A DNA stretch of 56,083 nt from Elusimicrobiota bacterium (GTDB lineage: Bacteria; CG03; SLGR01; JBDRKX01): the NCBI GenBank assembly GCA_043813605.1, contig JBDRKX010000102.1, positions 1 to 56,083 on the forward strand, given 5' to 3'. The notes under the pieces are model-generated. The model searched no databases, had not been told where the DNA came from, and saw only the letters and a program-made list of their open reading frames with translations. Below, piece by piece: positions 1-54,250 of the stretch. The position numbers were made by a program, and so were the translations under genes. Positions within the stretch are counted from its first letter, which is position 1, and each line of letters begins with the position of its first letter.

Positions 1-1270
1 ACATCCTCCAATGTATAAATTTTGTCGCCCTGATCATCTGATTCTTTTCTTGTCTGGGAAATTTTCAATCCTTTACCTGCAAATTCGTCAAGCATTATCA
101 CATCTTTGCCGACAACCATTCCCAAATATTTGATATAGTCTTTCAGCGCATCCATATACACCGTGCCTTCTGCAGATTCATCCCCTCCCGTAAGTATAAG
201 ACACATCTTGGTTTTATCCGCTTTATCAGGATACCTGTCTTTCTGCATCTTCAGGTTCTTGATGGCGTATTCGATACTTTTTCTTTCAACTATCCTGACG
301 ACATTCGCTATTATAAAATCATCTTCTTCAACTCCTATACGCCGCCTGAAATCACTGTTAAACACATCTATTTCCGGCGGAGATTCGGTAAAATCCATCA
401 CATTCGGTGCAATATTGTCTATGGTCAACAGCCTGTTCGCTTCCCTGAGATAATGTTCCGCTCTTTCAAAATCTTTTCTATCCCTGGAATCATCAGCACG
501 CTTCATAAGCCTGTTATAAAGCTGGGTATTAGCTTCAGAGTTAATGAATACCTGCACTATATTCTCTCCTACAAGCGGGAATGCATGGGCCAGGTAATCG
601 TGTATCTTGTCGTTAAGACGGTTTTCCGGCTGGTATCTTCTTCTTTCGAACCAGAAATCATGGTTATGGTTGATAAAAGTAACGTCTTTACGTTTTTCAG
701 CAACCCTCGCTACAGCAACTCCAAGAGGTATCTGCATCGGAATAGTACTTGAATTCTCCAGTATGACAATCCTGTTGCCTGTTGTGTCTATCCAATCCCC
801 TATCTGCCTTTCAAGAATACTGCTCTGATGTTCAACGAGCTGTTCTACTATCCGGTTCAAAAGAGGCCTTAATTTGTCCATCACTGCCATGTTAAGCGGC
901 AGCCCTATTGACAGGGCACTATCAGCATCAATTAATATCTGTTCTTCTGCAGATCGGATCAGGCGTACAGTCTCGTCATCTAAAATACCGGATCTAAAAG
1001 CTCCCTTTAAGCCCGCGATCACTTCTTTCACACTTGTCAGTTCCGTAAATGTAAGTTTTATTATCAGTTCATTAATAGGCTCTGAAAAAGAAACGCCGGG
1101 ATTCATATGCGTTTTATCTATTCCTTTTGTCTTTATAAATCCTTCACCTATTAGTAAATTAACCGCTGCGCCCGCTCTTTTCAGGATTTTTATCCACTTT
1201 TCGGTTTCAAGGGCCACTCCGTCAATACCGCCCATCCTGGTAACAAGTATCCCTGTCTTTATCCCCTTCT
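1..1270 (-). other. GT-B (GT4-like) glycosyltransferase-like domain inside giant 3, truncated by the window edge
   Basis: KTGILVTRMGGIDGVALETEKWIKILKRAGAAVNLLIGEG has the strand / GG loop / helix layout of GT4 N-domains. Later FIIANVVRIVERKSIEYAIKNLK...CLILTGGD looks like the start of the C-domain. Motif-level only. Confidence 0.4.
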
Positions 1271-4200
1271 GCCCCATCCGTTCAAGTACTTTTTTAAGTT
1301 CGCTTTCCGGCACAGCTCTCAGCATATCCCTTTCCTGCTCCGCAACTAATTCTGCGTCGGTAATACGTTCTTTAATAACTTCCGGTTTAACCTCCACTGC
1401 CGGCTCCGGAGCTTCAGTTGCTTTCGGTACTTCCCCGACCTCAGGTTCTTCCGGTACTTCCCTGACTTCAGGAGTTTCAGGTTCTATAGGAGCCTTTACA
1501 GCAGGCGAAACAGCTGCTTCCTCTTCTATGGGAGCCCTTGCGAACCTTCTCTTTGCCCGCTGAAGGCTGTTCCTGCGTATAATAAAAAGGGTGATACCGG
1601 TCAATGCCGCTGCCGTAATACCTCCAAAAGTAAGTGCCGCCGTGGAAAGGACACCGGCCATCATATAAGCCGCGGCGCCGACAATTACCAGCGCAACCGT
1701 TCCGATAATCAGGTATTTATACCTGGAGAATAGATCCGCCGCATCAAACCTTTTTCTTATGACTCTCCTTACTTCAGCCCTGGGGGCCGACGGGGCTTCT
1801 TCTGCAACTTCTTCCCTGGTTTCAGGCCGGACCGGTTCAGGTTCAAACGTTTCCGGCAGTTCCGCCGGCAGTTCGGCCGTTTCACTGACCGGAGCTCTTG
1901 TGATATCAGGTACTGCTCCCATAGCTCCTGTTACGGCTTCTCCGAGAAAAGCGGTTATCCGAGGCTGTGTCTCATTATACACTTCTTCCCAATCGCGGGT
2001 ATCCTCACGCCCGATTTCAACTCTTGATTCTTTCCCTATAATTACGGATATATCAGCCAATCCTCCCCTTGCCGCAACAACTTTATCTACCGGGAATCCC
2101 AGCAGTATATCGGTACGCCAGTCTTTCTCCAGCTCCTGGACCGGCCTTGAAAAGAATTCTTCAAGATATTCGGCGATATCGGCTTCCGCCGCCATATTAA
2201 AATTACTCTCTCCCGTATGCGCATGAGTACGCTTTATAGCGGTTAACACTGCGGATTCATCATACAGGAACTGTCTTCCACCGGCGGTAAATACTCCCAG
2301 TTTACTGTCCGCTGCCGAGTTTATACCGTTAAGCCAGCCCTGTATTTCGGCTTTTTTCACATCAGCATCAACACTTGTTACCGGTTTCAACCCTGAAACA
2401 GTAGCCGCTATTTCAAGCTTATCCCTGCTTACAAGGTGAGCATGTTTTCCGTCTGACCGTGCTGCTGAGATCCTTTTTGATATATCAAGGCGTTTGAGCT
2501 CTATTTCCAGTTCACCGGATTCTTCTTCAGACAGGACCCTCAACTTTCCTTTACTGTTAACCGCAATAGCTTTCTTCTCCCCGCTCAGGTTAAGGATAAA
2601 TACAATCTCTTTGTCGCGATCCCTATGTATGATCTCTTCTATAAAGAACCTGAACCTCACAGTACCGGCTGCTTTTGCGTTTTCTGCAGCCCATTGACCC
2701 ACAAAAGCGCTTACCAGCCGGGAGATCTCGGCGCTCTTATAACCGTGTTTTTCAAGCACAGCCCTTACATATGAACTGACAGCTCGCGCCACTATCCTTC
2801 TTGCGAGCCACGGCCTGTCGAGGAACGTAGGCAGACTGAGATTCTGCAGTATCATCTCTTCGTAACTGACCACTTCTTCTCCCCTGAGCAGTGAATAGTA
2901 GAGCCTCATATCTTCTTCCGTATATGATGTTACGCGCGGTATGATTATCGTATACGGGATATTTCTATTTTTCAGTTCTCTTGCGACGCCATATGTATGG
3001 AATCCGCCCGTAACCATGACAAGATTGTTCCCTGTACCGGAAAAACTGTCCTCAAATTTATTTATGAAACTGAGATCCCTCTTCTTTGCTATTTCGTAGA
3101 AACTCCCCATTTCCTGAACATGCTGTTTGAGCATGAGAAGGGCCGAGTCTATTGCCGAGAACTCTTTTTTGTACTGTATTTTCAGCATATTGAACTTTTC
3201 TTCAAATTCACCGGCCCGGGCATAGAACCTGTCAAGTTCATCACGGGTTATCTGGTTCAGCAGGAATTTTACCATAAGCTGTATATAGTTACTTATAAAC
3301 ACGAAATCCTTCTCATTATCGTTCTTGCCTAATGCACATGATATTTCTTCTACGACCTTGTTCTCTTCTCCCACGATACTGTAAGTATTAAGCTCCTTGG
3401 AGAGTTCTACGGTTTCTATGTAGTTTTTAAGATTGGAATATGCAGGATCAGTGAATATGAGCCTCGACATCTTCTCACGCATAACACCCGAACTGCTGAA
3501 AAATTCCTTAAACCTCTTGAATGTCACAGAAATATCTGGTTTTCCCTCATAATCCAGCTTCATGACTTTCATGAGTTTCCTGTATTCTTTTTCGACCTTG
3601 CTGAAATCGATGGTTTCCTGCCGCTGGGCAAGTTTCATATACCTGTTGTACTCCTCGGATATGCCCGCGACAGGTTTATCTGCTATTTTGGCCCACCCTG
3701 TAAGATGTTTCTGAAAGATGTACGGGGAAATAAGATCCTGTTTGTACTGGACATACTGTGACCTGAATTTCTGCAGATCTGAAGAACAGATGCTGCTTTC
3801 AGCGGTTTTAAGAAGGAATTTGATCCTTTCAAGGTATTCTACTATCTCCGGACGGCGGTTCAGTGAGGAGAGCAGTATCTGCGTATCCTGCCTGTAGAAG
3901 TCTTCATTATCCAGTCCTTCCAGTATCGGCGGATCCTTATATGCCGCGAATTCTTCTGCCCCGTTAACAAATCCTTTTTTCATGAAATAATGTATTACAT
4001 CCGCTTTCACCCTGATATCAGGGATGGAATAGAGAAGGGATACATCCACATCCGCAGAATTACCTTCTGTCCCGACCCTTTCTATACCGTAGTTGTTATC
4101 TATATGCGTCAGTATGCCCTTTATGTTCTTCTGGACTTCGTAATTTGCATGCAGATCCTGTATAAGTATAACCCTGGATTTAGAACTTCCCTGCATATAC

Positions 4201-4379
4201 GTTTCTACAACCTGACCAAACTCAAACGGTATTTGGATAGGTTCCATACGGGCGACAGCGGTATTAGCGGCTATATATTTGCTGGCATAAGTATAATCGT
4301 TGAATACATAGACGAATACAAAGGATATAATGAGCATCCAGCTTATTAACCTGAAATAACCGCTTTTCAGCATTTTCAT
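1..4379 (-). CDS. Giant multi-domain membrane protein 3, N-terminal 1,459 codons (3' end lies beyond the window start)
   Basis: Manual minus-strand translation from ATG at 4379 (MKMLKSGYFRLISWMLIISFVFVYVFNDYTYA...) stays open to position 3. Frame checked at 4379-4260, at 2999 (LVMVTGGFH) and at 1-60 (...SQTRKESDDQGDKIYTLED). It is absent from the ORF track only because no stop lies in the window. The first ~540 aa are paralogous to the giant 2 N-terminus. The + strand ORFs listed for 163..4349 are low-complexity antisense shadows. Confidence 0.85.
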   Translation of the reverse strand, partial: MKMLKSGYFRLISWMLIISFVFVYVFNDYTYASKYIAANTAVARMEPIQIPFEFGQVVETYMQGSSKSRVILIQDLHANYEVQKNIKGILTHIDNNYGIERVGTEGNSADVDVSLLYSIPDIRVKADVIHYFMKKGFVNGAEEFAAYKDPPILEGLDNEDFYRQDTQILLSSLNRRPEIVEYLERIKFLLKTAESSICSSDLQKFRSQYVQYKQDLISPYIFQKHLTGWAKIADKPVAGISEEYNRYMKLAQRQETIDFSKVEKEYRKLMKVMKLDYEGKPDISVTFKRFKEFFSSSGVMREKMSRLIFTDPAYSNLKNYIETVELSKELNTYSIVGEENKVVEEISCALGKNDNEKDFVFISNYIQLMVKFLLNQITRDELDRFYARAGEFEEKFNMLKIQYKKEFSAIDSALLMLKQHVQEMGSFYEIAKKRDLSFINKFEDSFSGTGNNLVMVTGGFHTYGVARELKNRNIPYTIIIPRVTSYTEEDMRLYYSLLRGEEVVSYEEMILQNLSLPTFLDRPWLARRIVARAVSSYVRAVLEKHGYKSAEISRLVSAFVGQWAAENAKAAGTVRFRFFIEEIIHRDRDKEIVFILNLSGEKKAIAVNSKGKLRVLSEEESGELEIELKRLDISKRISAARSDGKHAHLVSRDKLEIAATVSGLKPVTSVDADVKKAEIQGWLNGINSAADSKLGVFTAGGRQFLYDESAVLTAIKRTHAHTGESNFNMAAEADIAEYLEEFFSRPVQELEKDWRTDILLGFPVDKVVAARGGLADISVIIGKESRVEIGREDTRDWEEVYNETQPRITAFLGEAVTGAMGAVPDITRAPVSETAELPAELPETFEPEPVRPETREEVAEEAPSAPRAEVRRVIRKRFDAADLFSRYKYLIIGTVALVIVGAAAYMMAGVLSTAALTFGGITAAALTGITLFIIRRNSLQRAKRRFARAPIEEEAAVSPAVKAPIEPETPEVREVPEEPEVGEVPKATEAPEPAVEVKPEVIKERITDAELVAEQERDMLRAVPESELKKVLERMGQKGIKTGILVTRMGGIDGVALETEKWIKILKRAGAAVNLLIGEGFIKTKGIDKTHMNPGVSFSEPINELIIKLTFTELTSVKEVIAGLKGAFRSGILDDETVRLIRSAEEQILIDADSALSIGLPLNMAVMDKLRPLLNRIVEQLVEHQSSILERQIGDWIDTTGNRIVILENSSTIPMQIPLGVAVARVAEKRKDVTFINHNHDFWFERRRYQPENRLNDKIHDYLAHAFPLVGENIVQVFINSEANTQLYNRLMKRADDSRDRKDFERAEHYLREANRLLTIDNIAPNVMDFTESPPEIDVFNSDFRRRIGVEEDDFIIANVVRIVERKSIEYAIKNLKMQKDRYPDKADKTKMCLILTGGDESAEGTVYMDALKDYIKYLGMVVGKDVIMLDEFAGKGLKISQTRKESDDQGDKIYTLED
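1580..1722 (-). other. Pair of transmembrane helices in giant 3
   Basis: YKYLIIGTVALVIVGAAAYMMAGVLSTAALTFGGITAAALTGITLFIIRRN: two hydrophobic stretches flanked by basic residues. Confidence 0.6.
2750..4379 (-). other. N-terminal ~540-aa module shared by giants 2 and 3 (possible ChaN/Tiki-like fold)
   Basis: By-eye alignment, giant 3 vs giant 2: ILIQDLHANYEVQKNIKGILTHIDNNYGIERVGTEG vs ILIQDLHANFEVQKNISGILEHIDTNYGISKIGLEG; KFLLNQITRDELDRFY vs KFLLNQITREELDVFY; LVMVTGGFHTYGVARELKNRNIPYTIIIPRVTS vs IVMVTGGFHSEGVARHLKEKAINYTIVAPRVTS. The fold assignment is weak. Confidence 0.7.
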
Positions 4380-4413
4380 CGCTCTTCTATTCCCCTTTTT
4401 CCTCTTCCGGCAT

Positions 4414-4457
4414 AAAAAAAACCCGCACTCTGCTCATTTTTAAACAAAGTGCGGGTT
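4414..4457 (-). terminator. Conserved hairpin + T8, copy A (intrinsic-terminator-like), between small ORF A and giant 3
   Basis: Minus strand reads AACCCGCACT-(18 nt loop)-AGTGCGGGTT followed by TTTTTT: a perfect 10-bp stem and a T8 run in total. The TAA stop of small ORF A (4440-4442) lies in the loop. The giant 3 ATG is 35 nt downstream of the T run. Confidence 0.7.
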
Positions 4458-4976
4458 AATTCTGCGGGCATACATAGATGCCCACCCGTACATCAAAATT
4501 GGATTCATATCATACTTGTCTGCCAGACATTCGATACACCTATCCCTTGGTGTAACAAATTCAGCCCTCCATCGTAGATAATATTGAATACCAGGCGGGG
4601 CATGGGCATCCTCCTTTGTGAACAGGGACATATCCTTAGCTGCTTGAGACAAAGCACTCAGTATCAGTATCAACAGTAATAACGTCTTTTCATTACAGAC
4701 CAGTACACTGCTTAACAGGAAAAATACAAGGCCGGAATTCTTGTTTCTTTCTCTCTGTTTCCGGGTACTGGATTCTACAGGTACTGCATTCTTTTCAAAC
4801 GGGTTCCTGTTCAGGAAATTGTTGATAACAAGGACTGTTTTCCCCGGGTACGGTATAGCAGTTTTTACAAGTATAAAGCTTTTATTTACCACACCGGGTA
4901 GTTGGACGAGTCCAAAGAAAGAGAAACTCAATATGACTATGGCTATTGCCAAAGATATGACTTTATGTTTAGTCAT
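4440..4976 (-). CDS. Small three-TM membrane protein, paralogue A (unknown family)
   Basis: The ORF track gives 4440..5060, but residues 1-28 (MIINFTYISHIFHTYFTKKYY...) are translated from the 11-bp repeat array. Paralogues B and C start directly at a basic N-terminus plus TM helix, which matches Met29 (ATG at 4976, MTKHKVISLAIAIVILSF). The C-terminus QYYLRWRAEFVTPRDRCIECLADKYDMNPILMYGWASMYARRINPHFV aligns with B. Confidence 0.75.
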   Translation of the reverse strand: MTKHKVISLAIAIVILSFSFFGLVQLPGVVNKSFILVKTAIPYPGKTVLVINNFLNRNPFEKNAVPVESSTRKQRERNKNSGLVFFLLSSVLVCNEKTLLLLILILSALSQAAKDMSLFTKEDAHAPPGIQYYLRWRAEFVTPRDRCIECLADKYDMNPILMYGWASMYARRINPHFV

Positions 4977-5009
4977 AATAGGTCTTATATATATAGTATA
5001 ATACTTTTT

Positions 5010-5053
5010 TGTGAAATATGTGTGAAATATGTGTGAAATATATGTAAAATTAA
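5010..5053 (-). promoter_or_regulatory. Four tandem 11-bp direct repeats (tgtgaaatatg x2, tgtgaaatata, tgtaaaattaa) upstream of small ORF A
   Basis: Exact 11-bp phasing is read directly from the sequence. On the coding strand each unit contains a -35-like TTCACA/TTTACA. The same motif family occurs at 25270-25321, 54229-54250 and 55859-55880. Confidence 0.55.
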
Positions 5054-5059
5054 TTATCA

Positions 5060-8000
5060 TTATGTTGCCGTAAACACTCCTGCCACCTTATTCAGGTTAG
5101 GTATTATCGATTCATCCGGCTCCAACTGACGGCCGGTAAGTATCCTCATATGACGATCCAGAAGGTCGAGTATTGATACCCGGCCGCCGCCCATAAATGC
5201 GGCTGCTGCTACTGCATCCCATCTCTTATTACCGGATAATCCCATTTCTACTATAGTAACCGGCATTGTGACGACAGCTTTTCCGAGTCTGCTTATAGCC
5301 ATCACAAGCTGGCGTACACCGGATTTCAGCTTGAGTTCAAGAGTCTTTTCTTCTGTCACTTCTACCATTCCCGCAGATGTAGGCACATCTTCTATCTGCT
5401 TCTGGCCAAGGAACTTCATATTTATCCTTCCTACTTCTTCTATAATGCGTAAAGCTTTTTCCGGCATTTCCTGGCCTTCAGGCAGATTCATCACCAGGGC
5501 CACAAACTGGCTGATCTCTTCTTCTCCTGCCTTGACCTTGTTAAATGAGAATACGGTATTGAACCAGATAGGCAGCGCTATCGCTTCAATATCTGTCATA
5601 TGAGGCGCCAGTTCTTCCATATAGTCCTCCAAGTATTCAGTTAAATGCAGATTCTGGCTGGAATAACCGGCTATCATGGCCCGGAGTACGTTTACCGTGA
5701 TATTCATGTCTTTTGACCTGTCCAGAAGCTCAATGATCTTCCTGTAAGTAGCCTGGTTTATAGTCAATACACCATCTGCATAAGAGGTCTTTTCTCCTGT
5801 ACGAAGTTCTTCTATGCCCAGTTGTGCGGCCAGCAACGATTTTTCACTGAAGTTTTCGGGTATCCGTTTTACGGAAGATATCAGACGCTGCCAGATATTC
5901 CCGCCTGTTGTCGTGACTGCCGGTTCCCTTGCCGCCATCTCATCCCATTTTACGGCAAAATCACCGGCTGAAGTATCAAAAGCCCGCGTTTTCTCAACCG
6001 AGGCTTCCTGGGCCATCTCATCGACTATCCTCATGGCATCCCGGTCGCTCACGCCCATCTTTACCATATCGTCTACCCAGTTATGATAATCCCTGGTATA
6101 GCTGCCTGTATAACCGTGATATACACCGGCAAATGCGGACAATAAGACCGGCTCATTCACAGTATCACCAGTATATATGCCGCTGAAATTAAATGCCAGC
6201 GTGAAATCATATACGAATTCCGCCCAGTTTTCCGCGGACATATGGAACCGTTCCTGTAAGCGGCCGCTGTCGATCTGCGACATACGGGAAAGCTGGTTAA
6301 AAAGTGCCGGGCGCAGAACCTGTCTGTATACTTCTTCGTAACGGGTAAAATTCTCCTGGAATGCCGTCATACCGGCTTTCCAGTCTCCTATATGGTTGCC
6401 TTCGCTAACTACAGGAAGATCAACGCCTGCCAGCCTGTCCATGGCGGAACCGGTATCAACCGTTCTTGCCGGATCGAATTCAGAAACGACCAGACCGTTA
6501 AATACGATCAATTCAGCCGCTTTACCCGCTATAACCGACAGTATCCCGGCTAAACCTTCTATACTCACAAAATCCTTTTCATCTATATCTACCCGGAGAG
6601 CGACGGCGGCTGACCTGACAAACTCGGTATCATAATCTGTAAATTCCTGTGCATTGAGCCCATCAATATCCTTGAGCATATCGGCGCCCAACTGCCCGTA
6701 TTTTTCCAGTTTAAGTATGATATTGTCTCTCATCACGTTTCCATTACTGTCAAGAAGAGGTATATTGCGTATTTCTTCTATCGCCGCATCTATTTCACCA
6801 GGTGTCATGCGGGTTGAACCAATTTCAGGAATTTTTTCTTCAGGCGCGGCTTCGGCGACAGGAGCAGGCGCTTTTGGCGCTATGTCTTCTATTTCCCGGG
6901 GAGAAATGATCCTGTCTGCAACAGAATCAGTGTTATATGTACTGAAAATATCAAATTGCGGACTGATAAAAAATGAGAATTCATATGGATGTTTGTATTC
7001 TATCGGTTCCTTAGCGTCTACGGTCTGGTATGTTTGGGGAAGTCTCAGCATGCCTATATCCGGAGGCGATTTATTTGTGAAAGTTCTCAACCATTCCGAT
7101 ATAGCTGTATCTACTCCATCTCCTATGATACCTTTCAGCCACACAAGGGCTTCGGGGCTGAGCCTGTAAAGGCGCGATATTATCGAATGTATCGGCCGTT
7201 TATCTTTACCGCTGAATACTTCTTTAACATTATCCAGGGACCTCTCATCCTCGTTCAATCCCCTTAATGCGGTCTGCTGAGGTATTGCCAGCAATATGTT
7301 TACCGGCTGAGAGACTATCTTATCAACATTGGCTTTTCCTATAAAGCCTGCCAGTTGGCTAAACCCGGCTTCTGATACAAGAGCTTTTTCGATCTTGGCT
7401 ATTTTTGAGATATATTTTGCCGAGGTACCTTTAACGACGTAATTATTAAATCTCTTTATATCAGCGTTCTTTATCTCTACTATATATATATTGCCGTCCA
7501 GCTCTATAATAGCGTCTAACTCGACCAGCGGCCCGATATTATCCGTTATTGTAATCCCTGTACTAAGTACCTTTGCACCGATGTTCATCAGGTTATCCAG
7601 GCCCACTAGTTCGGCAAAGAAATTGTTTATATCAGACAGATTTATGGGTTTCCTTTCTTCACTCATGTATTCATTTATTATATTGGCAATCGTGTTTAAA
7701 GTACCTAATACCCCGGGTATTTCGATCGTATTAGCTATCACTTCATGGATATATGGATTTATCTCCAAACCTGTTTGAGTTTTATTAAAAGCGAATACTG
7801 CTCCGAGATTTCCAAGATGTTTAATAAGATCTTCATTGATGGACGGGGTAGTTGCTGCAAGGTTAAAAAATTTGCCTAATACCGGAAGGATCCGCGGGTT
7901 ATCAACAGCCAGATTCAGCGACCTGACTGTCAGCGCCCTGGCAGCATCTGAATCGCTGCTCTTTTCTATTACTTCAATAATAGAGGATATCTGCTGCCGG

Positions 8001-11000
8001 AATCCTGTCCTGTCTTCAGGACTCATACTTGCAAGCAGCGATTCTATAACATCCGCTTTCATACCCATTTCTGCGAGCATCTCAGGTAACCCCATTTCTT
8101 CTTCAGTAACCTCTCTTTTTTCAGATACAACGGGTTCTTCTGCGGGTTTTACCGCTTCTTTTCTTGCCCTATAGTTTCTCCATACCCCTAAAGCAATGAT
8201 TCCGGCTATAACAAGCGCAAACGCTCCTGCTAACCACACATAGTTGCTGTTAACAAAAGTCTGCATCATGGTTATCAGGTTATCCAGGCCGGACGGCTCT
8301 ACGATACTCTGTGCGGCACTGATAACATTTTCAGCAGCATCTCTGACGACGAGATCAAGGTTTTCGGGAACAGCAGCCGTTAACTTCCCAACGACCTGTT
8401 CTTTAAGCGGTTCGGCAACCGGACCGGCAGTATCTATTATTGTCTGAACAGCCTGCTTAACCGGTTCGACAGTCTTCATTAGTAATTCCTGGCCAGGTTG
8501 TATCAGTTCCGGGTTTAAGGCAACTTTAGGATTGTTTGAGATTATCTCTTTTACAAAATTCGCTATCTGCTGGTTCGTAGGACTGTCTATGCCTATTCCC
8601 TCAAGGTACTGCCGCGCTATCCTCCAGAGTGAATTACCCGGCTTTACAACCGCAAGTACCTGTGACCCGCGCATTACTATTTCAGCAGCTACGCTTGTGC
8701 CTACATTGCCGAGAAAAGTCAGTATCCCGGCAAATATCCCCAGTCCGGCTACTACCGCTGGTTTCAGTATACCGGCCTTTTTAACAGGTGCAGTTTCTGC
8801 TGCCGGTTCTGAAACCACTATTCTCCTGTCCTGCATTGTCCTGGCTATCACAGATTTTACAAGCGGATATTTACGATATATAGCATCAAAATATCCCCTG
8901 TGAATAGCAATGATCCTGGCACCTTCGCTCCCTGCCCTGACAGTGGCAGTACGAACGGCATCCTGATTAAGGAGAGCTATTTCACCAAAATAGTCATTCA
9001 GTTCAACATTAGCTACATACTTGTCTTCTCCTGCTTCATCTTTCTTTAGTACCTGTGCTGAACCCTCTACAAGGATATAAATGAAGTCTCCTGTTGTGTT
9101 TTCTTTAATTATGTCCTCTCCGGGCTGGAACGAATCTTCCATAACAAGAGACGCGATCAAAGTCCTTATATTATCAGGCAGGCTCCTGAACAGAGTAGAA
9201 TCAGCTATATGTTTCTGGTTTTTCCATGTATTAAGGAGTATTTTCTTCACATTTTTCGTGAGATCCCCCGGATAAACCGGTGTATACTCAATATTCGTCA
9301 TCGCTATTACGGTAGCGTTTGTTTCAACACCTTTCTCGGATAATGCCGATAGTCCCACAATGTCTCCGGGACCCGCTATAGCAATTTCTTTTCCTGTTTT
9401 TTCATCAATAATGCGGACACTTCCTTTTCTTATGAAAAACGCTTTATTAATAATAGTTTCCTGAGTTATAAGTTTTTCACCTTTATAAGATTTTTCTATT
9501 GATTTTCGTCCGAAAATGCCGCGTTTTCCTTTAAGAAGGTTTCTTATCTGTCTTTTCTGGATAGGATTTAGATAGCCGTTCTCAAGCGCATTTGCCAGCA
9601 CAAGAGAATCTACAGGTGCTTTGCCGTTAAATACCGGATCGCCTATTTTAACGACTTCGCCTACTGATACCGGTTCTAAACCGGTCATCTGCCTGTCATT
9701 CTCATCCTGGTAATGTATGCCCAGCATATTCTTTGTAATATCGTCTGTTGTCCTGCCATAGTGGGCACCTGCGGCTTTTACCAGTTTTGCCACATCCTGA
9801 TGAACCGGATCGCCTTTTTTAGCGTCAATAAAAAGTTTATCCACCCCGACGAAAAGAAAATCTACTATATCAGTCGCTTTTTCTTTCTTAAGGACAACTT
9901 TTTCCTCACCTTTATCGTCAATAGTTATTTCTTCAAGAATACCTGTTTCGGCGTTATATATATCCGATGCCATGACAAAAACACCGCCGCCGACATTTTT
10001 CGGAGCTTCGATCCTTATTGCAGCAGTAGGTATACTGTGTTCCACCATCTGAAGTATCACTTTAGTACCGCCCGGCAACTCAATAGTTTTTCCATCTTCG
10101 TTCATTTCGGCAAATATCACATTCTTTCTGAGGTCCTGACCGGTCATAAGTTTACTCTTTTTTGAAGCCTGCTCGAGTATGGTCTCCATGCTCTTTCTTA
10201 CCATCCCCTGTTCAACTATGACCTGTACGCCTCTCTGCGCGCCCGAAAGCATCCCTTCAATATGGTCCGGATGGTTATGCGATATTATTATGTAATCTAC
10301 GTCAGTAGGCAGGCCGCGCGCCTGAAGCACCCTGTCCGCTTCAGCGTGCGGGTCGATGAGTATCTTTGTCAGGGAACCGTCAGCGTTCCGGATCGCTACA
10401 TACATTGAAGTATTAAGCGCCGCTCCCGTTGTCCTTCCAAACGATCCAACACCTATAGGCACAGCTATCATCCCCTTATCAGGCATAGACACAGGTTCTG
10501 CTTCCCATTCGCCAAGATCGTAGTCAAACGGCCTATTGTCAGACAGGTCAAATGTCTTTTCATTGACTTCTACTTTACCATCATGCATCGTAATAGAAAC
10601 ATTCCGGCCCAGATTAGCGATATCTCCTTCATCTAACACCATAAAATCGACTATATGATGTACGCCGAACGGTTTTCCTTCCCTTAATTCCACAGGACCG
10701 AGGAACATCTCAGCAATGAGCGGCTCAAGTATTGCCCGCTGTTCACTGGTCACTATAAGCGTTATCCTCGGGTCCCGGCGCGGCCATCTGCCTCTCACCC
10801 TGCCGTATTCATCTGTTACTATGTTGCCATCTCCATCCCTATACATGGTCTCATTGAACATAAAGAACGCAGGCCTCGAATCAGGACTTCCTTTTTCTGC
10901 TTTAAAATCTATCGGCCCGAATATGTTCCCGGCGTTCATATCAAACACATGATCGAATATCATGTTCATTATCACCGGGATAAGATTAGTCCCGTCTTCT

Positions 11001-14000
11001 GATAAAAGGTCTTCCTGTACCGCAAGGAAATCCGGTATCTCCATCGCGTTTTCCATCCTGTAGGCCTTGTCATGCCCGCGGTTGATACCTGCCTGGAAAG
11101 TCCATTTATTATTTCCCTTTTTCCAGTTATACCTTAAACGGGTAACATCGAGCAGACTTGAGAGGTACCTTATGCCGGCTATTTCAGGTTCAGTAAGATT
11201 TGGAAGGTCAAGAAGCATGGTATTAAGGAATACGGCAGGTTCAAAACCTTTCTGTATTCCGGAAGAGAGGATATCGTTCCTTCTGAGGAGCGTGCTCTGC
11301 AATGAGGATTGACCCCATTCAGAGAGAGTGAAATCAGGAATACCGGTGGCGCTTTGTAGCGCATCAATAATATCCTGTATAATATGCGCTCTTTCTCTTA
11401 ATTCATTGATATTCTTATAGTTAGCCAGTATGTCTTTATGGTATTTGTCTTCTATACCAAGTTCACTCAGGAACGCTCTCATCTCGTTATCAGGCGTAAC
11501 AGGTTCTTTTTCCTCTTCTTCCCTTCTTCTCCTTAAAGCAGTGATTATCCCTGATATAACTCCTACTGCTCCCGCATCTGACCACTCACCCGGCGCTAAT
11601 GCGTTCCGGATCTCTGACATCGCCTCGTTAAGTATTCCGAGCAGTCTTTCAGCGGCATTGTATTCATACCTGCTGTCTTCATCATTAAGTCCTCTCAACT
11701 TGTCCATTATACCGGTCAATCCGGATCTCACATTATCAAGTAATCCGAACGCATTCTTGTCCGTTTTTGCCAGTTCAATAAGGCTGTTTATGAATATCTG
11801 CCTGTTCTCAAATGAATAATCCTCATCAAGTATCCTTGAAACATGTTCCAGTATACCTACCTGTTCTGTACTCACTGTTACATCACCGTCTTTGGTTATT
11901 GTGGCAAAATGAAGAACTCCTTTTGATGTGAATTCAGTGAAAATAACAGCAGATGTTATAAGCTTCATTCCTTCGCCCGGCTGTCCGCCTGTGCATACCC
12001 TTGCCGCCGCGAACTCAAGGTCATCAACTGACACGCCCATTATCTCGGCAAGATAACCGGCTGCATCGGCCAAAGCGATGACTTTCATCACAACCGTCTC
12101 GGGATCTTCACTCGGATCAACTGTTACCATCCTGGCTACTATTCCGGTATAGTTATTGTCTTTTATATGATCTGTAACAAACTGCTGAACATCAACTTCT
12201 TCTTGTGTACCATAACCTAATGCAGCGAGCTTCTTCATCCAGGTTACTGTCTCAATATAAGCCCTTTCCTCTTCCATAGCTCTTACACGAAGGGTACTAT
12301 GGTCACCCATGATACCTATATTGTAATCTTCTATATGTTTCGCTTCATGAGCCAGTACAAGTATCACATTTGCGGCAAAACTCCTGTCCTGCCTGATGTT
12401 TTCAAGATGGTTTTTACCTATAATTATTATTCCGGCTTCATAGAACGCCATCGCCTGGAAAGGTATATCCAGTATAACAAAATGCTTTGCATGACCGAGC
12501 AGTTCTTGTGCCCGCTCTGGATCGACACTATACATGAATTCGACGATCTCTTTCATCGCTTTCTGTATCTCTTTATCAGCCTGCAGTTTTTCATATTCGG
12601 GTTTGGTCATACCGTTCGTCAGTCCGACAAGCTCGGGCCTTGTCGCCATAAGCTCGTTATATCCCAGCGGGGCGGTTATCTGATTTAATATACTGCCGAT
12701 ACGGGCAGTTGGAGTAATCCCCTTAAATATAGTATTCATCACATCGTCTCTTTCAAGAACTTCCATGTGCGGATCATCGGTTGTCGGAGCAAGATAAACG
12801 ACATTATCACCTAATCCGTTATTAAAGAGCTGCTGATACCGGGCATCCGAATTCGCATCAGGATTGAAGGAATCCCCTCTTATGAATACCTGTTTCAATC
12901 CAGCTATCTTTCCGGCAAACTCGCTTACTGCCTCTTTACTGAAGAGCCTTGTCTGTATCGTACCGTTATAATCCTGGACTGCAGAAACGTTACTGTAATC
13001 CCTGAAACCCAGTGCGGATATGATCTTCATAAGAGCCTGTCTGAATCCGCCGGAAGTGTTTGCGGCGCTCTCGTTTCCGCCGATTGTAGGCGTAAGTTCT
13101 ACTACAGAAGCGTTTCTATAGAGGCCGCTCTCATCGTTCAATACGGCATTTCTTATAACGTTTGTCCCGTACGAATGCAGGACGATAGTCACATTCTCTA
13201 TGCCTTTTGATTCGATGAACGCCGCGAGTTCCCGGTTGAATTTACCCGAGATATCATCGATCGGATTGAGCCAGTAATAACTAAACTCGACTATATTGAC
13301 TCCCAGCGCTCTTGCGGTATCAACTATATGTTTCATAGTCTCAGGAGTATAATCAGATGCGCCGTGAACAAGTATATATGTCGGCTTGGTATTGTCTATT
13401 GTGAATGTATCCGGGGAATCGCTCAGATTGACGACTCTGCCCGAAACAGCCGATACATCAGCAGAAGCTTTTGCCTCTGTTCTTCCGGCTTCGACTTCAA
13501 GATGAGCTACTTCCTTAGAATCAATCCTCTCTGTTCCTTCCATCTCTTCATCATAAAATACTCCCGTCAATGCTTCGAATAGGTTCTCTGACGTGAGTTT
13601 TCCGTCAACCAGGCTCACTTTGGCTTCTTTGAAATTCCCGTTACGGTCATAGACCTTCAATACTCCGTCTTTTATCATTAGGTTGGCCATGAGCATCAGT
13701 TTTTCAAGCAGTATATCGGAACCTATCGCCATAGAAGCGAATCCAAGCGGCTCGGTAGTAAAATACATGAATGTCTCGGCAAAATCCTCGTTATAATTTG
13801 TCTTGGCATAATTGCTGACAAAATCGTTCATATCTTTTGATCTACCGGAGAGTTCTATCCAGGCCTGCTTTTGGGTATCTGTAAGGACATTCCAAAAGAC
13901 ATTATGTCCTATCTCGTGCCTTATGGTGCATTCATAAAATTCATCTTTACTACCAAGGTCCCTGGCAGAGAGCGACCTTATTATCTGGTGTATGTGTACA

Positions 14001-24652: not shown

Positions 24653-24660
24653 TTATTCAT

Positions 24661-24704
24661 AAAAAAAACCCGCACTCTGCTCATCTCTAAACAAAGTGCG
24701 GGTT
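24661..24704 (-). terminator. Conserved hairpin + T8, copy B, between small ORF B and giant 2
   Basis: Same 10-bp stem as copy A (AACCCGCACT / AGTGCGGGTT); the loop differs at 2 nt. The TAG stop of small ORF B (24687-24689) lies in the loop. The T8 run ends only 8 nt before the giant 2 ATG (24652). Confidence 0.7.
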
Positions 24705-25241
24705 AATTACTCGGGCATTAGATGCCCGCCCGTACATCAAAATTGGATTTATATCATACTTATCTGCCAGATTTTGGATACATTTATCCACAGGTGTGAT
24801 AAACTTAAGCCGCCATCTGGAATAATACTGAAAATCATCATCGGGAGGCCTGCACCTCCGTTTCAGATAGTCGGTAAAACTCTTTAAACAAACACTGACT
24901 GCAGCCAGTATCCCTATCAAAAAGACAAGGAACATTGACTCTTTGGAAGCAAAAAGCGCTCCACCCATGATAAGGAAAAGGAAATTGAATATTTTTCTCG
25001 AATCCTTATCGTTTGAATCTCCCGCTCTATTACTCGTTTCCTGTACACTGCCGGTAGCGGCTCCTTTGACACATCCATTGACTTCCATAACAGCGATCGA
25101 CGGATAATTCAGCGCGGTTTTCAGCAGTGAAACCGCTCCGGTAATGTTCTTCTGGATCTGAAAAGTCCCCAGAGAGGTGAAAGACAGTATTACCAATACA
25201 GTCAGTATCGACAGTATTTGTCTTTTGTTAGAGTTTTTCAT
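24687..25241 (-). CDS. Small three-TM membrane protein, paralogue B
   Basis: 184 aa with an N-terminal TM (ILSILTVLVILSFTSLG) and two central TMs. Conserved tail: QYYSRWRLKFITPVDKCIQNLADKYDINPILMYGRASNARVINPHFV. Confidence 0.8.
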   Translation of the reverse strand: MKNSNKRQILSILTVLVILSFTSLGTFQIQKNITGAVSLLKTALNYPSIAVMEVNGCVKGAATGSVQETSNRAGDSNDKDSRKIFNFLFLIMGGALFASKESMFLVFLIGILAAVSVCLKSFTDYLKRRCRPPDDDFQYYSRWRLKFITPVDKCIQNLADKYDINPILMYGRASNARVINPHFV

Positions 25242-25269
25242 TATATACTCTTTTCTATTAAAAGTATAC

Positions 25270-25321
25270 TGTGAAATTGTGAAAAATTTGAGTACGGAAT
25301 GTAAAATGTTTGTAAAATATT
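25270..25321 (-). promoter_or_regulatory. Phased direct repeats tgtgaaat / tgtgaaaaatt / tgagtacggaa / tgtaaaatgtt / tgtaaaatatt upstream of small ORF B
   Basis: 11-bp register read directly from the sequence. Lies 29-80 nt upstream of the ATG at 25241. Confidence 0.5.
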
Positions 25322-25453
25322 CATATTCAAAGTATCCTTTTAAGAACCGCTAAATTAATAACACGTAATTATGAATTAATCAAGAGAGGGGATTTTTAAC
25401 TATAAATCCATATTTATTAATAGAAATGAAAATCCGGGAGGGTAATAATACTC

Positions 25454-25496
25454 AAAAATAGAGATCCGGACTGCCCTTTCAGGAACAGTCCGGATC
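25454..25496 (-). terminator. Rho-independent terminator after giant 1
   Basis: Minus strand reads GATCCGGACTG-(12 nt)-CAGTCCGGATC followed by TCTATTTTTGAG: a perfect 11-bp stem, 43 nt after the TAA stop of giant 1. Confidence 0.75.
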
Positions 25497-25538
25497 ATGT
25501 ATTCGGGGAGAATATCTCCCTTTTCTAAAAGCCGACTT

Positions 25539-49500: not shown

Positions 49501-52500
49501 GGCTCTCCATTTTCTCCAGCCACATGTGCTATGACAGAATTACCTTCCTGAATATACTGTTCCAGTTCATAAAAATCGGCTTCACTCCCTTCCAGTGCCA
49601 CACCCTGTTTTTCTGCTGCTTTCTGTATGGCAAACATAGATGTCGAAAACTGCGCGCCACTGGACAATGTCTCTTCGGTTACCGAACCAGTAAGAATATC
49701 AACAAGTATGGAAGTGGTCGCTATCTCTTCTATTGTCTCGGCATCTTCTATACCGAGAAGATTCTTAAGAGCATTAGTTGCGCAGTTTATCACGTTCTTA
49801 GTCTCATTGAAAACTGTTAGCAGCGCATCTATACTGGATTTGGATATCTGTATGGTAATATCGTCAGGATTGAGCCCGAGTTCTGCAAGCATGGCATTTC
49901 TCTCTTCTTCAGTCGCATCCAGATAATCATTGAGCCAGGTAGAAACATCTTGTTTTACTTTATCTTCGGATGTAAGGGTTTCGTCCTGTATTTCCGTCTG
50001 TTCGTCATCAACTTGATCCTGTGATGATAAAGTAACCGTTTCTTCCGCGCCTGTGTCTGCATCAATACTAGATCCAGTAGCGGTATCCTGTGCCTCTTTT
50101 TGTGTTGTATAGGTCCGCGCTGTATATTGTGATGTTATATTACTCTCGGATCCGCCGCCTGTTTCAGTACCGGTAATCGCGGGACCCGCATCCACATCTA
50201 CATCAACGTCTACATCCGCATCCATACCTACAGCAACATCCGCATTAACAGTTGTATCTGCAGTTGTATCTGCAGTTGTATCTGCAGCCACATCAGCCGA
50301 TACCGCATCAGAACTCGACGAGCTTAATCCTAAAGCAGAAGACAGGCTGTTTCCCGTCACAGCGCTGAAGCCCTGCCCGACTACACTATTGTCTGCAAAA
50401 TTACCCAGCATGCCGCTTATTGAAAAACCCTGATCCGACATCGCTGATTGCGCTGCCGCTACTGCCAGACCGACCGCAAGGCCGCCTATGAAACCAAAAG
50501 CAAGGCTTGCGGCAATAGTTGCAATAGTAGTCATATGGGATGTGATAAATCCCATTATTGAAAACCCTGTTTGAGCCGCTTCTGCTGCTTCCGCACAAGC
50601 TTCTGCCGCTTCCGCACAAGCTTCTGCTGCTGCTGCCGCTTCCGCAGACGCTGCATCCGCCGCTTCCGCCGCCGCATTCGCTGCTTCTGCCGCTTCCGCA
50701 CAGGCTTCCGCATCTCCACTGGCTGCTGCTTCCGCGCAGGCTGCCGCCGCCGCCGCACAATCTGCCGCCGCTTCCGCCGCTGCATCCGCTGCATCTGCCG
50801 CATCCGAGGCCGCATCCGCCGCTTCCGCCGAGGCATCCGAGGCTGCTGCATCCGCATCCGCCGCTGCATTGGCATCTGCCGCCGCATCCGCTGCTTCCGC
50901 CGCTACATCCGCCGCTGCATCAGTCCCAATCGCTGCCGCATCCGCTGCCGCCGCATCCGCTGCCGCATCCGCCGCCGCCGCCGTATCCGCCGAGGCATCC
51001 GCCGCTTCCGCTGCCGCATCCGCCGCATCCGCTGCCGCTGCCGACGCATCCGCTGCCGCTGCCGACGCATCCGCCGCATCCGCCGCCGCATCCGCTGCAT
51101 CCGAGGCCGCATCCGCTGCATCCGCCGCATTTCCATTCGCCGCCGCATCCGCTGCCGCAGAAGTCGCATCCGCTGCCGCTGCCGACGCATCCGCTGCATT
51201 CGAGGCCGCATCAGCCGCGTCAGATGATGCATCCGCCGTATCTCCCGCTGCATCACCTGCACCATCTCCGTCCCCGTCTCCGCCCTTGGCGCCCATAATC
51301 GACTGCTGTTCGGCTACTCCCAGTTCACGCGTTACCGCTTCTTCTGCCAGTATGTTAACCGTATCCGCGATATTTAATGAATCTTTATTTGCTGTATATT
51401 CCTTGCCGTCCGCATCTGTATACGTAACTTCCCCGGCATCGTCTATACCAGTAACCACTACATAATGACCTGCACCACTATCCCCCTCTACCCACGCTAT
51501 TACGGAATTACCATCCTTTATATAGTCTTTAAAATCATTCCAGGACGCTTCACTTCCATGGAGATCCAATCCCTGCTTTTCCGCTGCTTTCTGTATGGCA
51601 AACATAGAGGTAGAGAACTGTCCACCGCTTGAAAGAGTCTCTTTTGTCACTGAACCGGTTAAAATATCGACAAGGACGGCTGTCGTTGCTATTTGGGCCT
51701 GCGTATCATCGTCAGAAATTCCCAGAAGATTAGCCAATGCTTTTACAGCGCAGTTTATTACATCACCTGTCTGGGTCAGGAGTTTAATTATGGCGTTTAC
51801 CGATGCCTGAGTAAGATTTACTATCGGTACTTCTTCAGGATCCAATCCGAGGTCCGCGAGCATCTCTTTCTGTCTTTCAGTACCGGCACCAACATACTCT
51901 TCAAGCCAGGCTGCGACATCCTGCACTACAGCATCTTCTGCCTGATGAATATCCTGCTCGTCTGTGGTTGTAACTGTCTCGTCAACTACTGTTTCAACAG
52001 TATACTCGGTTGGCTCTGTAGTCGTTTCCACATATTCCGTATCGGGTGCTGTTTCGGTATCAATATAGCTGTTCGCTGCCGCTATCACCTGCCCTACTTT
52101 TTCTGTATCATTTTGCTCAACGAGATCCGCTGCTGTCTCGACAAATTGACCGGCAGATTTAACATCACCGATCTCTATGAAACGGTTGGCAGTATCAATC
52201 AGATCTTTTGCCGTTTCTGTATTTCCGGATTCCACAAGTCCTTTGGCAGCTGCAGCCAGGTCTCCCGCTTCTTCTGTCTTGCCCTGATCTATAAGTGTAG
52301 TTGCAGTATCCAATAGCTGACCGGCTGTTTTAAGCTGGTCGTTTTCAACCATCCGGCTCACTGCGCTGATAAGGTCTTCCGCTACCGGAGTATTACCTTC
52401 CTTAAGCGATTCATTAACAGCATCGACAAGCTGACCCGCCGCCGCAGGATCTCCTTCTTCCATTAGTTTTTTTGCCGTTTCAACAAGCTGACCGGCTGTC

Positions 52501-53510: not shown

Positions 53511-53513
53511 TGT

Positions 53514-54158
53514 TTATACCGCCTTTGTGTATAACTTACTTTCTTCTATACTCATAAAAAAAACCCGCATTCCGAATACTTCATTCAAAATGCGGGTTCC
53601 TTTCCCCCGAAAACCTTTTACGCGCGCTATATCAAATTCGTTTACACGGCTTTTCAGATACCTGTCCCATGGCGTCAAAAACTTCAGTATCCAGCTCGTG
53701 TAATACATTATGCCGGCCCGTATACGGCCCGGCATATAACAATCCCTGTCATATGCCTTTTTCCGTATAAGCGTTGTGCCGAAAGTAAAGACTGCAACCA
53801 TAAGAAGAAAAAACAGCTCCCTGTTCGTCATCAGCACTGCACTCAGTACGTAGTAGAGATGCCCGAACAATCCCCTGCCGGCCTTTTTCCTGACAGGTAC
53901 CGATTTGGTATTTGATTTTTCTTCTTCAGAACTTATCTTTACTTCTCTAAAAAATTCTTCAGATTCAGTAAAAATCGTCAGGTACGGAAACAGTATCTTT
54001 GTTTTAAAAAAAGAAACTGTGCATTCTATCATGTCAAATTGTATAGCAGCAACAGTTTCTATTGTTTCGGATATCTGGAAAGTGCTCATAAAAGTACAGA
54101 GACATATTGTAATAATTATGAGATGTGATATTAACTTTATTTTAATTAAATTACGCAT
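53514..54158 (-). CDS. Small three-TM membrane protein, paralogue C
   Basis: 214 aa with N-terminal TM LISHLIIITICLCTFMSTF and central TMs. Conserved motif: MYYTSWILKFLTPWDRYLKSRVNEFD. The TAA stop lies 3 nt before the giant 1 ATG. The ORF reads through hairpin copy C. Confidence 0.75.
   Translation of the reverse strand: MRNLIKIKLISHLIIITICLCTFMSTFQISETIETVAAIQFDMIECTVSFFKTKILFPYLTIFTESEEFFREVKISSEEEKSNTKSVPVRKKAGRGLFGHLYYVLSAVLMTNRELFFLLMVAVFTFGTTLIRKKAYDRDCYMPGRIRAGIMYYTSWILKFLTPWDRYLKSRVNEFDIARVKGFRGKGTRILNEVFGMRVFFMSIEESKLYTKAV
53556..53598 (-). terminator. Conserved hairpin + T8, copy C, 46 nt upstream of the giant 1 ATG and inside small ORF C
   Basis: Minus strand reads AACCCGCAT-(19 nt)-ATGCGGGTT followed by TTTTTT: a 9-bp stem whose closing end differs from the A/B stem on both arms while pairing is kept. 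It is translated as ...TRILNEVFGMRVFFM... in ORF C. Confidence 0.5.
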
Positions 54159-54191: not shown

Positions 54192-54200
54192 ATTATACCA
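54192..54200 (-). promoter_or_regulatory. Candidate extended -10 element (TGGTATAAT) for the small ORF C / giant 1 unit
   Basis: The reverse complement of attatacca is TGGTATAAT, 34 nt upstream of the ATG at 54158. The context is AT-rich, so chance matches are likely. Confidence 0.3.
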
Positions 54201-54228
54201 TATAATAATGAAATTATGCTGACTATTA

Positions 54229-54250
54229 TGTAAATTTTCTGTAAAATATC
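54229..54250 (-). promoter_or_regulatory. Two phased 11-bp repeats (tgtaaattttc, tgtaaaatatc) upstream of small ORF C
   Basis: Read directly from the sequence. The array abuts the stop codon of the receiver gene. Confidence 0.45.

Follow-up and report, generated by a model that had tools for sequence, protein, structure and literature searches.

Introduction

How does a bacterium express genes for proteins of many thousand residues, and is there anything next to such genes that is dedicated to them? The transcription, translation, and insertion of bacterial proteins of 5,000 to more than 10,000 residues are essentially unexplained, and surveys of giant genes cover the domains of the giants, not their control. 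The question is raised by contig JBDRKX010000102.1 of an Elusimicrobiota bacterium (assembly GCA_043813605.1), whose entire 56,083 nucleotides (nt) were analysed and are referred to here as the window. It contains three giant open reading frames (ORFs) in tandem, each of which is preceded by a gene for a small membrane protein and by an RNA hairpin followed by a run of eight T residues (T8). We find that small gene, hairpin, and large gene constitute a conserved operon module, which has been duplicated repeatedly in uncultured bacteria, most of them labelled Elusimicrobiota, and that the hairpin lies within the small ORF, where it could act as a terminator that is controlled by translation. 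A conserved partner gene and an RNA element directly upstream of giant genes offer a handle on their expression that can be tested with reporters.

Three tandem cassettes

All three cassettes lie on the minus strand. The ORF list contains the three same-strand giants of the original prediction at their predicted sizes, namely G1 (25539-53510; 9,323 amino acids, aa), G2 (5060-24652; 6,530 aa), and G3 (1..4379; at least 1,459 aa), the last of which has no stop codon and runs past the left end of the window. Their small neighbours are S1 (53514-54158; 214 aa, or 191 aa in the database call, which starts from M24), which belongs to an S1-type subfamily, S2 (24687-25241; 184 aa), and S3 (4440-4976; 178 aa). 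For S3, the mechanical ORF spans 4440-5060 (206 aa), and the ATG at 4976 is the start position that agrees with homologues (P0002, 178 aa). The stop-to-start gaps are 3 nt for S1 and G1, 34 nt for S2 and G2, and 60 nt for S3 and G3, exactly within the predicted range, and the small proteins are indeed related to one another, since BLASTP aligns S1 with S2 at 25% identity (E 3e-15) and S2 with S3 at 36% identity (E 4e-29).

The giants proved to be mosaic relatives, as had also been proposed. In BLASTP comparisons, G1 and G2 overlap only in their C-terminal ~270 aa (30% identity, E 4e-16), within C-terminal modules at 25542-26387 (aa 9042-9323 of G1) and 5063-5962 (aa 6231-6530 of G2), and G2 and G3 overlap only in their N-terminal ~900-960 aa (36% identity, E 7e-161), which correspond to N modules at 21938-24652 (aa 1-905 of G2) and 1488-4379 (aa 1 to ~960 of G3, including a signal-anchor). 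The same hairpin was claimed for all three giants and is present at each of them, but it is placed inside the 3′ end of the small ORF and not merely ahead of the giant. Hairpin 1 (53556-53598; 17 base pairs, bp; predicted free energy, dG, −21.9 kcal/mol) lies within the S1 ORF, the stop codon of which comes 40 nt past the T-run, and the loops of hairpin 2 (24661-24704; 17 bp, −26.5 kcal/mol) and hairpin 3 (4414-4457; 17 bp, −25.6 kcal/mol) hold the stop codons of S2 and S3, respectively. A regular-expression search found no further copy of the hairpin and T8 on either strand of the window, and no Rfam family matches anywhere in it.

The window is probably a metagenome contig, and the continuity of its ORFs is known from the assembly alone, so it might be supposed that the giants are mis-joined repeats or pseudogenes and that the cassette pattern is accidental. 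We consider this extremely improbable. An ORF of 9,323 sense codons cannot have arisen by chance, both the 6,530 and the 9,323 codons are uninterrupted, the tandem repeats of the window are modest (only two arrays in Tandem Repeats Finder, 65% identity), and the same architecture is found in independent assemblies from ENA, NCBI, JGI, and Logan.

The hairpin within the small ORF

The element was compared in 15 DNA examples, all of which have a stem of 11-17 bp with a dG between −14 and −26.5 kcal/mol, followed by T5-T9. In an alignment of eight sequences, 98% of the cells are paired, compared with 26-54% when the partner is slid, and both sides have changed at four pairs; the 15 examples have an invariant CCG/CGG core, around which five stem positions show compensatory pairs. 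The sequence is also retained. The 20 basal nucleotides of the stem show a mean DNA identity of 83% across the 15 cassettes, compared with 59% for the DNA of the best 24-residue motif of the small protein.

The position of the hairpin relative to the ORF is equally constant. None of the 15 small ORFs stops ahead of it; 12 cross the hairpin and the T-run and stop 2-40 nt later, and the other three, including S2 and S3, stop inside it. At the protein level, 92 of 121 family members carry a translated imprint of both arms and the T-run, in one or another of the three frames (shuffles give 0.65), and 14 further members end in or near the loop, which brings the number of ORFs extending over the 5′ arm to at least 106 of 121. 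The imprinted tails differ with the frame (NPHFV...SAGFF, TRTL...VRVFF, and KPAL...ECGFF). Because the imprint occurs in all three reading frames, the conserved object is the nucleic acid and not the peptide. Collectively, these data show that selection acts on both the structure and the sequence of the hairpin, whatever the reading frame.

The main conventional explanation is a leaky terminator for low expression of the giant: most transcripts would end after the small gene, and rare constitutive read-through would make the giant mRNA, with no role for the ribosome. The element has the canonical features of a strong terminator, and low expression is plausibly needed for very long genes. In addition, unrelated genomes use this stem as an ordinary terminator. 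A hairpin-only DNA pattern retrieved 61 stretches from genome contigs, only two of which contain the cassette (L032 and L041); the remaining 59 come from unrelated genomes and are presumably ordinary terminators, so the stem alone is not diagnostic. What a leaky terminator leaves unexplained is why the small ORF always extends over the hairpin. Products of non-stop mRNAs are expected to be tagged and degraded by trans-translation (e.g. PMC3949413), and this fate would await the small protein in the 12 of 15 cassettes whose ORF has no stop codon before the U-tract. By contrast, a terminator-like hairpin of the conventional kind is found after G1 (25463-25496, minus strand; 14 bp, strong), and this one lies 42 nt past the stop codon, unlike those embedded in the small ORFs. 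Terminators placed as in the cassettes are moreover repressed by translation in E. coli, where the translating ribosome represses intrinsic terminators late in an ORF or a few bp after it, to an extent that depends on transcription-translation dynamics (PMC4824070), and tight coupling of transcription and translation blocks formation of the terminator hairpin (PMC5021804). A plain internal terminator is therefore judged unlikely.

Two other functions for the hairpin region were considered and rejected. A fusion of small and large protein through slippage on T8 is contradicted by stop codons, which intervene in every frame relation examined, and by the frames, which differ among cassettes. A conserved antiterminator was suggested by a GGGCA...TGCCC hairpin upstream in S2, S3, L001, and L032, the 5′ arm of which could pair with the 5′ arm of the terminator in these sequences; this hairpin is absent from the S1-type cassettes. 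It was also observed that the T-run leads directly into an ATG in nine of the 15 hairpins. In cassette 2 (24652-24660, minus strand), this ATG opens a mini-ORF of three codons, ATG AAT AAA TGA, the stop of which overlaps the start of G2 (ATGA).

Recurrence of the module in other contigs

Synteny of the small gene with large ORFs, which the original prediction offered as a check, was examined in 12 further cassettes on 11 independent contigs. In 11 of the 12, a same-strand relative of the large proteins of the window lies downstream of the small gene; ten of these are immediate neighbours, and one (L070) is separated from the small gene by a response-regulator gene. The idea of a duplicated unit of small partner and giant is thus supported in its essentials, but the partner is not always a giant, since the large proteins span 1,079 to 10,994 aa and include complete ones of only 1,079 and 1,601 aa.

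The small gene precedes a 7,469-aa protein in L001, a complete 1,601-aa protein in L003, a 10,994-aa protein in L069, and a protein of at least 2,337 aa in L072. The arrangement is tandem in L002, where a giant of at least 4,458 aa is followed by the small gene and by a second giant of at least 3,890 aa, and in L004 (identical in sequence to L005 and L006), where the order is a protein of at least 576 aa, a small gene, the complete 1,079-aa protein, another small gene, and a protein of at least 692 aa. In L074, a distant member of the small family (E 2e-13) precedes a large protein (at least 3,627 aa), and the two genes overlap by 4 nt at stop and start. In L070 (identical in sequence to L071), a gene for a double-receiver response regulator is interposed between the small gene and that for an N-module protein. 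The two contigs located through the hairpin pattern are L032, from a metagenome-assembled genome labelled Deltaproteobacteria, with a small gene followed by a large one, and L041, in which the small gene occurs twice in a row (1-1145), both copies with a hairpin, ahead of one N-module gene. The sole exception is L073 (4253-7607), where a G1-like fragment with a C39-like domain is convergent to the small gene; this may be due to rearrangement or to chimeric assembly of short reads. In L073, the hairpin is followed by a short ORF on the plus strand, which has a strong Shine-Dalgarno sequence.

Named relatives belong mostly to Elusimicrobiota/Endomicrobia, and Omnitrophota appear only among distant matches to the N module. 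The comparison with Omnitrophota-type giants made in the original prediction is borne out for the many transmembrane (TM) segments and not for the taxonomic affiliation. No relative of the cassette was found in plasmid and phage collections. Small gene and hairpin together provide an easy marker for fragmented giant genes in metagenome assemblies.

Large partner proteins

A profile made from the last ~300 aa of G1 and G2 locates the C module at the extreme C-terminus of every partner whose end is on the contig. It was located in this way in L002 (upstream giant), L003 (1,601-aa protein), L004 (upstream fragment and 1,079-aa protein), and L007 and L070 (upstream gene of each). This module of ~280 aa is common to two classes that are distinguished by their N-termini.

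Class A comprises G2, G3, L001-L004, L032, L041, L070, and L074. Its signal-anchor ends in NDYAYA and has 12 invariant residues among the first 32, at an overall identity of 37-42%; a module of ~800 aa follows, and then one or two TM segments. The ~800-aa module has no match in Pfam or PDB, and its AlphaFold model, with a predicted local distance difference test (pLDDT) score of 76, has no significant Foldseek match. Invariant residues in 20 sequences are H77, Q83, E105-G106, R434, and G458-G459-x-H461 (1980-4379, minus strand, in G3). These His, Glu, Arg, and GxxH invariants recall motifs of the Tiki/TraB/ChaN/erythromycin-esterase proteins, which we presume to be a likeness of motifs only, as no database search confirmed it. 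A relationship was rejected given the absence of any Pfam match or PDB sequence match, and Foldseek returned nothing at E≤0.001, with the erythromycin-esterase-like 3b55 at only rank 29 (E 1.8).

Class B comprises G1, L069, and L072, together with L073 as a G1-like fragment, and is defined by the anchor RKxVxLxTVFxFFxxNxxWGW (of the type TVFAFFxxNxxWGW in G1). The two classes are matched by two types of small protein. Those of the S1 type, with the motif WILKFLxP..YLK..NEYDI, are always beside class B proteins, and those of the S2/S3 type are always beside class A proteins; S1 itself shares 38% identity with its counterparts in L072 and L073. Within class A, cassettes with more similar small proteins also have more similar N modules (pairwise identities, r = 0.74, Mantel p ~2e-4), and the two class A cassettes of the window are less alike than S3/G3 is to L001 and L002. 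The cassette thus duplicates and diverges as a unit, and its parts are conserved and inherited together across many contigs.

Between the end modules, the large proteins carry an assortment of domains. Repeated C39-like domains occur in the class B proteins G1, L072, and L073. G1 has four of these papain-type domains, with NCA motifs at aa 586, 1242, 2590, and 3908, a TM cluster at aa 2740-2970, helix-hairpin-helix repeats, and a helicase-like region at aa ~6900-7700 with GGKT (Walker A) at aa 6899, DEAD at aa 7025, and a weak Helicase_C match (E 0.015). As to the divergent SecA-like domain described in surveys of giant genes, G1 gave no Pfam SecA_DEAD match at E≤1 and shows only the DEAD-box-like motifs and the weak Helicase_C match; PF07517 is carried by P0025, a distant relative of the N module. 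The middle of G2 contains several TM segments, a metallo-beta-lactamase-like region, two cNMP-binding stretches, and a weak LysM match, and G3 has a GT4-like glycosyltransferase at aa 1169-1417, C-terminal of its N module. Cytidylate kinase, deaminase, HD, and MFS domains are found in the middle of relatives, and a hydropathy scan gave ten partly overlapping hydrophobic stretches each in G1 and G2. Because assorted middle domains sit between conserved end modules, the large partners seem to have grown from a two-module membrane protein of ~1,100-1,600 aa, by insertion of payload between fixed N and C modules. Viewed as grown forms of such a protein, the giants become tractable in evolutionary terms.

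Some local features of the giants may be added. In G1, a low-complexity Ala/Asp tract at aa ~770-880 (50878-51198, minus strand) has 55% GC and a degenerate 42-nt tandem repeat, and two near-duplicate segments of ~250 aa lie around aa 8100-8600. In the region of G2 at aa 5174-5390 (8483-9130, minus strand), the two cNMP-binding stretches are just N-terminal of a TM segment at aa 5293-5322, and the LysM match (aa 5335-5390), which is weak and below the Pfam cut-off, lies between this segment and the next at aa 5469-5493. This arrangement fits a short loop that faces the periplasm and the peptidoglycan, in a protein whose many domains are otherwise cytoplasmic.

The small protein family

The size of the family depended strongly on the search method. 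A word-indexed search with S1-S3 returned only six proteins, three of them from outside the window, and wrongly suggested an extremely rare family; the same kind of search with a 110-sequence profile gave only five matches. An exhaustive HMMER search of 1.84 billion cluster representatives yielded 118 matches at E≤1e-3 and 87 at E≤1e-10. One of them, P0073, was rejected as a false positive of the profile (a 2,157-aa eukaryotic sushi-repeat protein), which leaves ~117 clusters, and nearly all the matches are 150-230 aa long. A search of genome and metagenome contigs with the small-protein alignment profile found no loci. S1-S3 have no match in Pfam, NCBIfam, PADLOC, PDB sequences, or PDB folds, and in PADLOC neither the small proteins nor the N and C modules match a defence system, the only matches being of receiver-domain type on the response regulator. 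P0028 is a 389-aa fusion of two copies of the small protein, in which translation passes through the first hairpin.

Conserved features of the family are an N-terminal TM segment, a YP motif in the next segment, a hydrophobic hairpin, and the C-proximal motif PPxxxYYxxWxLKFxTPxxKCIxxxxxxYDINP. The AlphaFold model is all-helical, with helices at residues 4-62, 79-97, and 100-130 followed by two short C-terminal helices, and its lowest confidence falls on the tail encoded by the hairpin (pLDDT ~53-55). Hydropathy and the model both support one N-terminal TM helix and a hydrophobic helical hairpin, in line with the three TM helices predicted originally. A simple N-in topology was not adopted, because the charge distribution of the S2 and S3 sequences conflicts with it. 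Since the type of small protein matches the type of anchor and the anchors are unusually conserved, the small protein probably serves the N-terminal anchor of the large protein as a dedicated partner in the membrane, as far as can be judged from sequence.

The size, the three hydrophobic helices, and the alternation with very large proteins might instead point to a holin-like protein that serves in export or release, or to one that confers immunity to a toxic giant, with the hairpin being incidental. TcdE is a holin-like protein encoded between the large clostridial toxin genes tcdB and tcdA, and the cassettes share with it a small three-TM gene that alternates with very large protein genes. 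However, no similarity to TcdE in sequence or fold was detected, no holin or immunity family is matched in Pfam, NCBIfam, PADLOC, or PDB, and no lysin/endolysin or peptidoglycan hydrolase is adjacent. The large proteins look like resident membrane proteins, because they have a signal-anchor of their own, numerous TM segments, and domains of cytoplasmic type (cNMP-binding, kinase-like, and glycosyltransferase). Toxin-immunity pairs, including those of contact-dependent growth inhibition and Rhs systems, show the reverse pattern: the small gene of the cassette is upstream and co-varies with the constant N-terminal anchor and module, not with a variable toxic C-terminal domain or payload. With the hairpin as the best-conserved part of the small gene, a holin or immunity function is very unlikely, and a partner of the anchor remains the preferred role of the small protein.

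A proposed translation-dependent gate

The junctions between small and large genes provide a further clue. Stop and start codons are adjacent or overlapping in L004a, L032 (TGATG), L072, and L074, and S1 and G1 are only 3 nt apart; because the stop of the small ORF adjoins or overlaps the start of the large gene, these junctions bear the signature of translational coupling. In most cassettes, the large gene starts 8-47 nt after the terminator of the hairpin-bearing small ORF. Taken together with the position of the hairpin, this leads us to propose that a translation-dependent attenuator in the small ORF gates the large gene, often with translational coupling, and that the small protein is the membrane partner of the N-terminal anchor, a proposal that we regard as evenly poised between right and wrong.

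The module would then consist, in order, of a promoter with 11-nt-phased ATTT(T/C)AC repeats, a gene for a three-helix protein of ~180-215 aa, the embedded terminator, and a gene for an anchored modular protein with a conserved N-terminal anchor/module, a middle of a few hundred to more than 9,000 residues, and the ~280-aa C module. A ribosome that translates the small ORF and follows RNA polymerase closely would occlude the hairpin, so that transcription enters the large gene, which would often be translated via coupling from the adjacent or overlapping stop and start. An uncoupled polymerase would end transcription at the U-tract, the terminated transcript would be stop-less in most cassettes, and trans-translation would clear the small product. 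Small and large protein might in this way be made together or not at all, because the terminated transcripts are predicted to be non-stop in 12 of 15 cassettes. The small protein would bind the N-terminal membrane anchor of its large neighbour, with a role in assembly, insertion, or regulation.

A different use of translation is made by SecM-secA, MifM-yidC2, and VemP-secDF2, in which translation of a membrane-targeted upstream ORF remodels an RNA hairpin and controls the downstream gene. By analogy, the small ORF could be a monitoring leader: co-translational insertion of the small protein into the membrane would set the distance between ribosome and polymerase, or stalling, and the leader would sense insertion capacity ahead of any commitment to a giant membrane protein. 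The small gene is indeed an upstream ORF with an N-terminal TM segment, a C-proximal motif rich in tryptophan and proline (WxLKFxTP...YDINP), and an RNA hairpin at its 3′ end, and the large protein encoded downstream also spans the membrane several times. In contrast to short leaders, however, the small protein is conserved over its full length and models as a folded helical membrane protein, and its motif ends ~10-17 codons before the hairpin, beyond the cover of a ribosome stalled there. The known systems act on translation initiation by ribosome arrest and on genes for secretion machinery, whereas the hairpin of the cassettes is a terminator that does not sequester the start region, and modular giants lie downstream. 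A monitoring leader is thus quite unlikely.

The translation-dependent attenuator can also be extended into a coupling checkpoint, which we put forward tentatively, as possible though doubtful. A terminator-bearing membrane ORF would license polymerase into a gene of 3-33 kb only with a membrane-tethered ribosome directly behind it, the tethering arising from insertion of the small protein; aborted stop-less transcripts would be cleared by trans-translation, and the small protein would stay as receptor or partner of the anchor. If true, such a checkpoint would be a dedicated, family-wide solution to the expression of very long membrane proteins.

Several points weigh against the attenuator and the module built around it. 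Termination, read-through, and dependence on the ribosome are all predictions from sequence. The sequence conservation of the stem may reflect only an optimal terminator, and the correlation between small proteins and N modules could be due to shared descent of adjacent genes alone. In L001 and L002, the ~200 nt from the hairpin to the giant start could accommodate a promoter of their own. Synteny was assessed on a small sample, limited to the contigs that could be retrieved (12 cassettes on 11 contigs); in L073, the ORF after the small gene is convergent instead of same-strand, and L007 contains an N-module gene with 1 kb of upstream space in which no small gene could be detected.

Promoter regions and flanking genes

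The promoter regions of the window cassettes, all on the minus strand, are similarly built. That of cassette 1 (54192-54247) contains ATTTTAC at 54247-54241, AAATTTACA at 54237-54229, and the extended −10-like sequence TGGTATAAT at 54200-54192; that of cassette 2 (25263-25318) has four ATTT(T/C)AC-type boxes and the −10-like CAGTATACT; and that of cassette 3 (4995-5050) has four ATTT(T/C)AC boxes exactly 11 nt apart and the −10-like GTATTATACT. The boxes, two for S1 and four each for S2 and S3, end 3-28 nt ahead of the −10-like box. Two to four ATTT(T/C)AC repeats with 11-nt spacing are likewise found upstream of the small gene in L001, L002, L032, L070, and L072; repeats of this kind precede most cassettes and, where a −10-like box was located, end 3-36 nt before it. 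Because such repeats and a −10-like box precede the small genes, each cassette seems to have its own, similarly regulated promoter, a prediction made from these motifs.

Operators of the OmpR/PhoB type are tandem direct repeats with ~11-bp phasing next to the −10 element, and the two to four repeats of the cassettes, exactly 11 nt apart and near a −10-like box, resemble them. They differ in that the window contains no winged-helix regulator, and the neighbouring response regulators show receiver domains only. One of these (54252-54662, minus strand; 136 aa) is encoded just upstream of cassette 1, after a 371-aa gene (54694-55809, minus strand) whose product has an N-terminal hydrophobic segment followed by a Cys and weak YD-repeat and NlpE-like matches. 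Two ATTTTAC boxes 11 nt apart (55860-55877, minus strand) also lie ahead of the 371-aa gene. Elsewhere, receiver proteins are encoded near cassettes in L070, where the receiver gene separates the small gene from the N-module gene, and upstream of the small gene in the context of P0029.

The 3′ side of G2 is without an element comparable to the hairpin after G1, and the repeat boxes of cassette 3 start 10 nt past the G2 stop. The spacer of L001 (10590-10745) contains repeated copies of GTCATTGCGAG and an inverted copy, CTCGCAATGAC, and looks like a small inserted repeat element; that of L002, from hairpin to giant, is ~220 nt. The 1-kb spacer of L007 (1856-2916) has GTTAGTCGCTAGT-like and GACCCCTTTTT-like direct repeats, with TTTTACA/TTTTCACA boxes ~600 nt upstream of the start of the N-module gene.

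Comparison with known systems

Giant genes of Omnitrophota and other PVC bacteria have been described as TM-rich, with SecA_DEAD, C39-like, DEAD-type helicase-like, and mixed enzyme domains; Elusimicrobiota are among the phyla with very large genes, and type II secretion-like loci upstream and pilZ genes near the giants were reported (bioRxiv 10.1101/2023.11.21.568195; 10.64898/2026.06.07.730766). G1 and G2 are similar to the Omnitrophota giants as multi-kb ORFs with numerous TM regions and, for G1, C39-like and DEAD helicase-like domains. They differ in size, their 9,323 and 6,530 aa being below the 30,000-aa class (West-Roberts et al. 2023), and in that their relatives are not mainly Omnitrophota. 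A term search of the main texts of both surveys for a small upstream partner, a terminator or hairpin, a cassette, and shared end modules found none of these, nor did the other literature searched contain anything alike, which agrees with the earlier impression that the cassette logic is undescribed. This suggests that protein families without current annotation are joined here in an attenuator-like arrangement with giant modular membrane proteins that is undescribed in the literature searched. Two-partner secretion (TpsB/TpsA) is a different arrangement, as the small protein of the cassette is all-helical in the model, unlike the Omp85-type beta-barrel partner of such systems, and ~180 aa long, with no match to two-partner secretion or POTRA families.

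The attenuation of pyrBI provides a further comparison. There, as in the cassettes, the ORF next to the promoter extends into or across an intrinsic terminator ahead of the main gene, and a closely following ribosome would block the hairpin and permit read-through. The cassettes are distinct in that the leader is a conserved membrane protein family (150-230 aa) and not a short non-functional peptide, that no nucleotide-sensing pause site is evident, that the gated genes are 3-33 kb long, and that the sequence of the hairpin is kept across more than 100 protein clusters. If the proposed ribosome-dependent gate is correct, it would carry attenuation beyond short leader peptides, to a functional membrane protein of full length.

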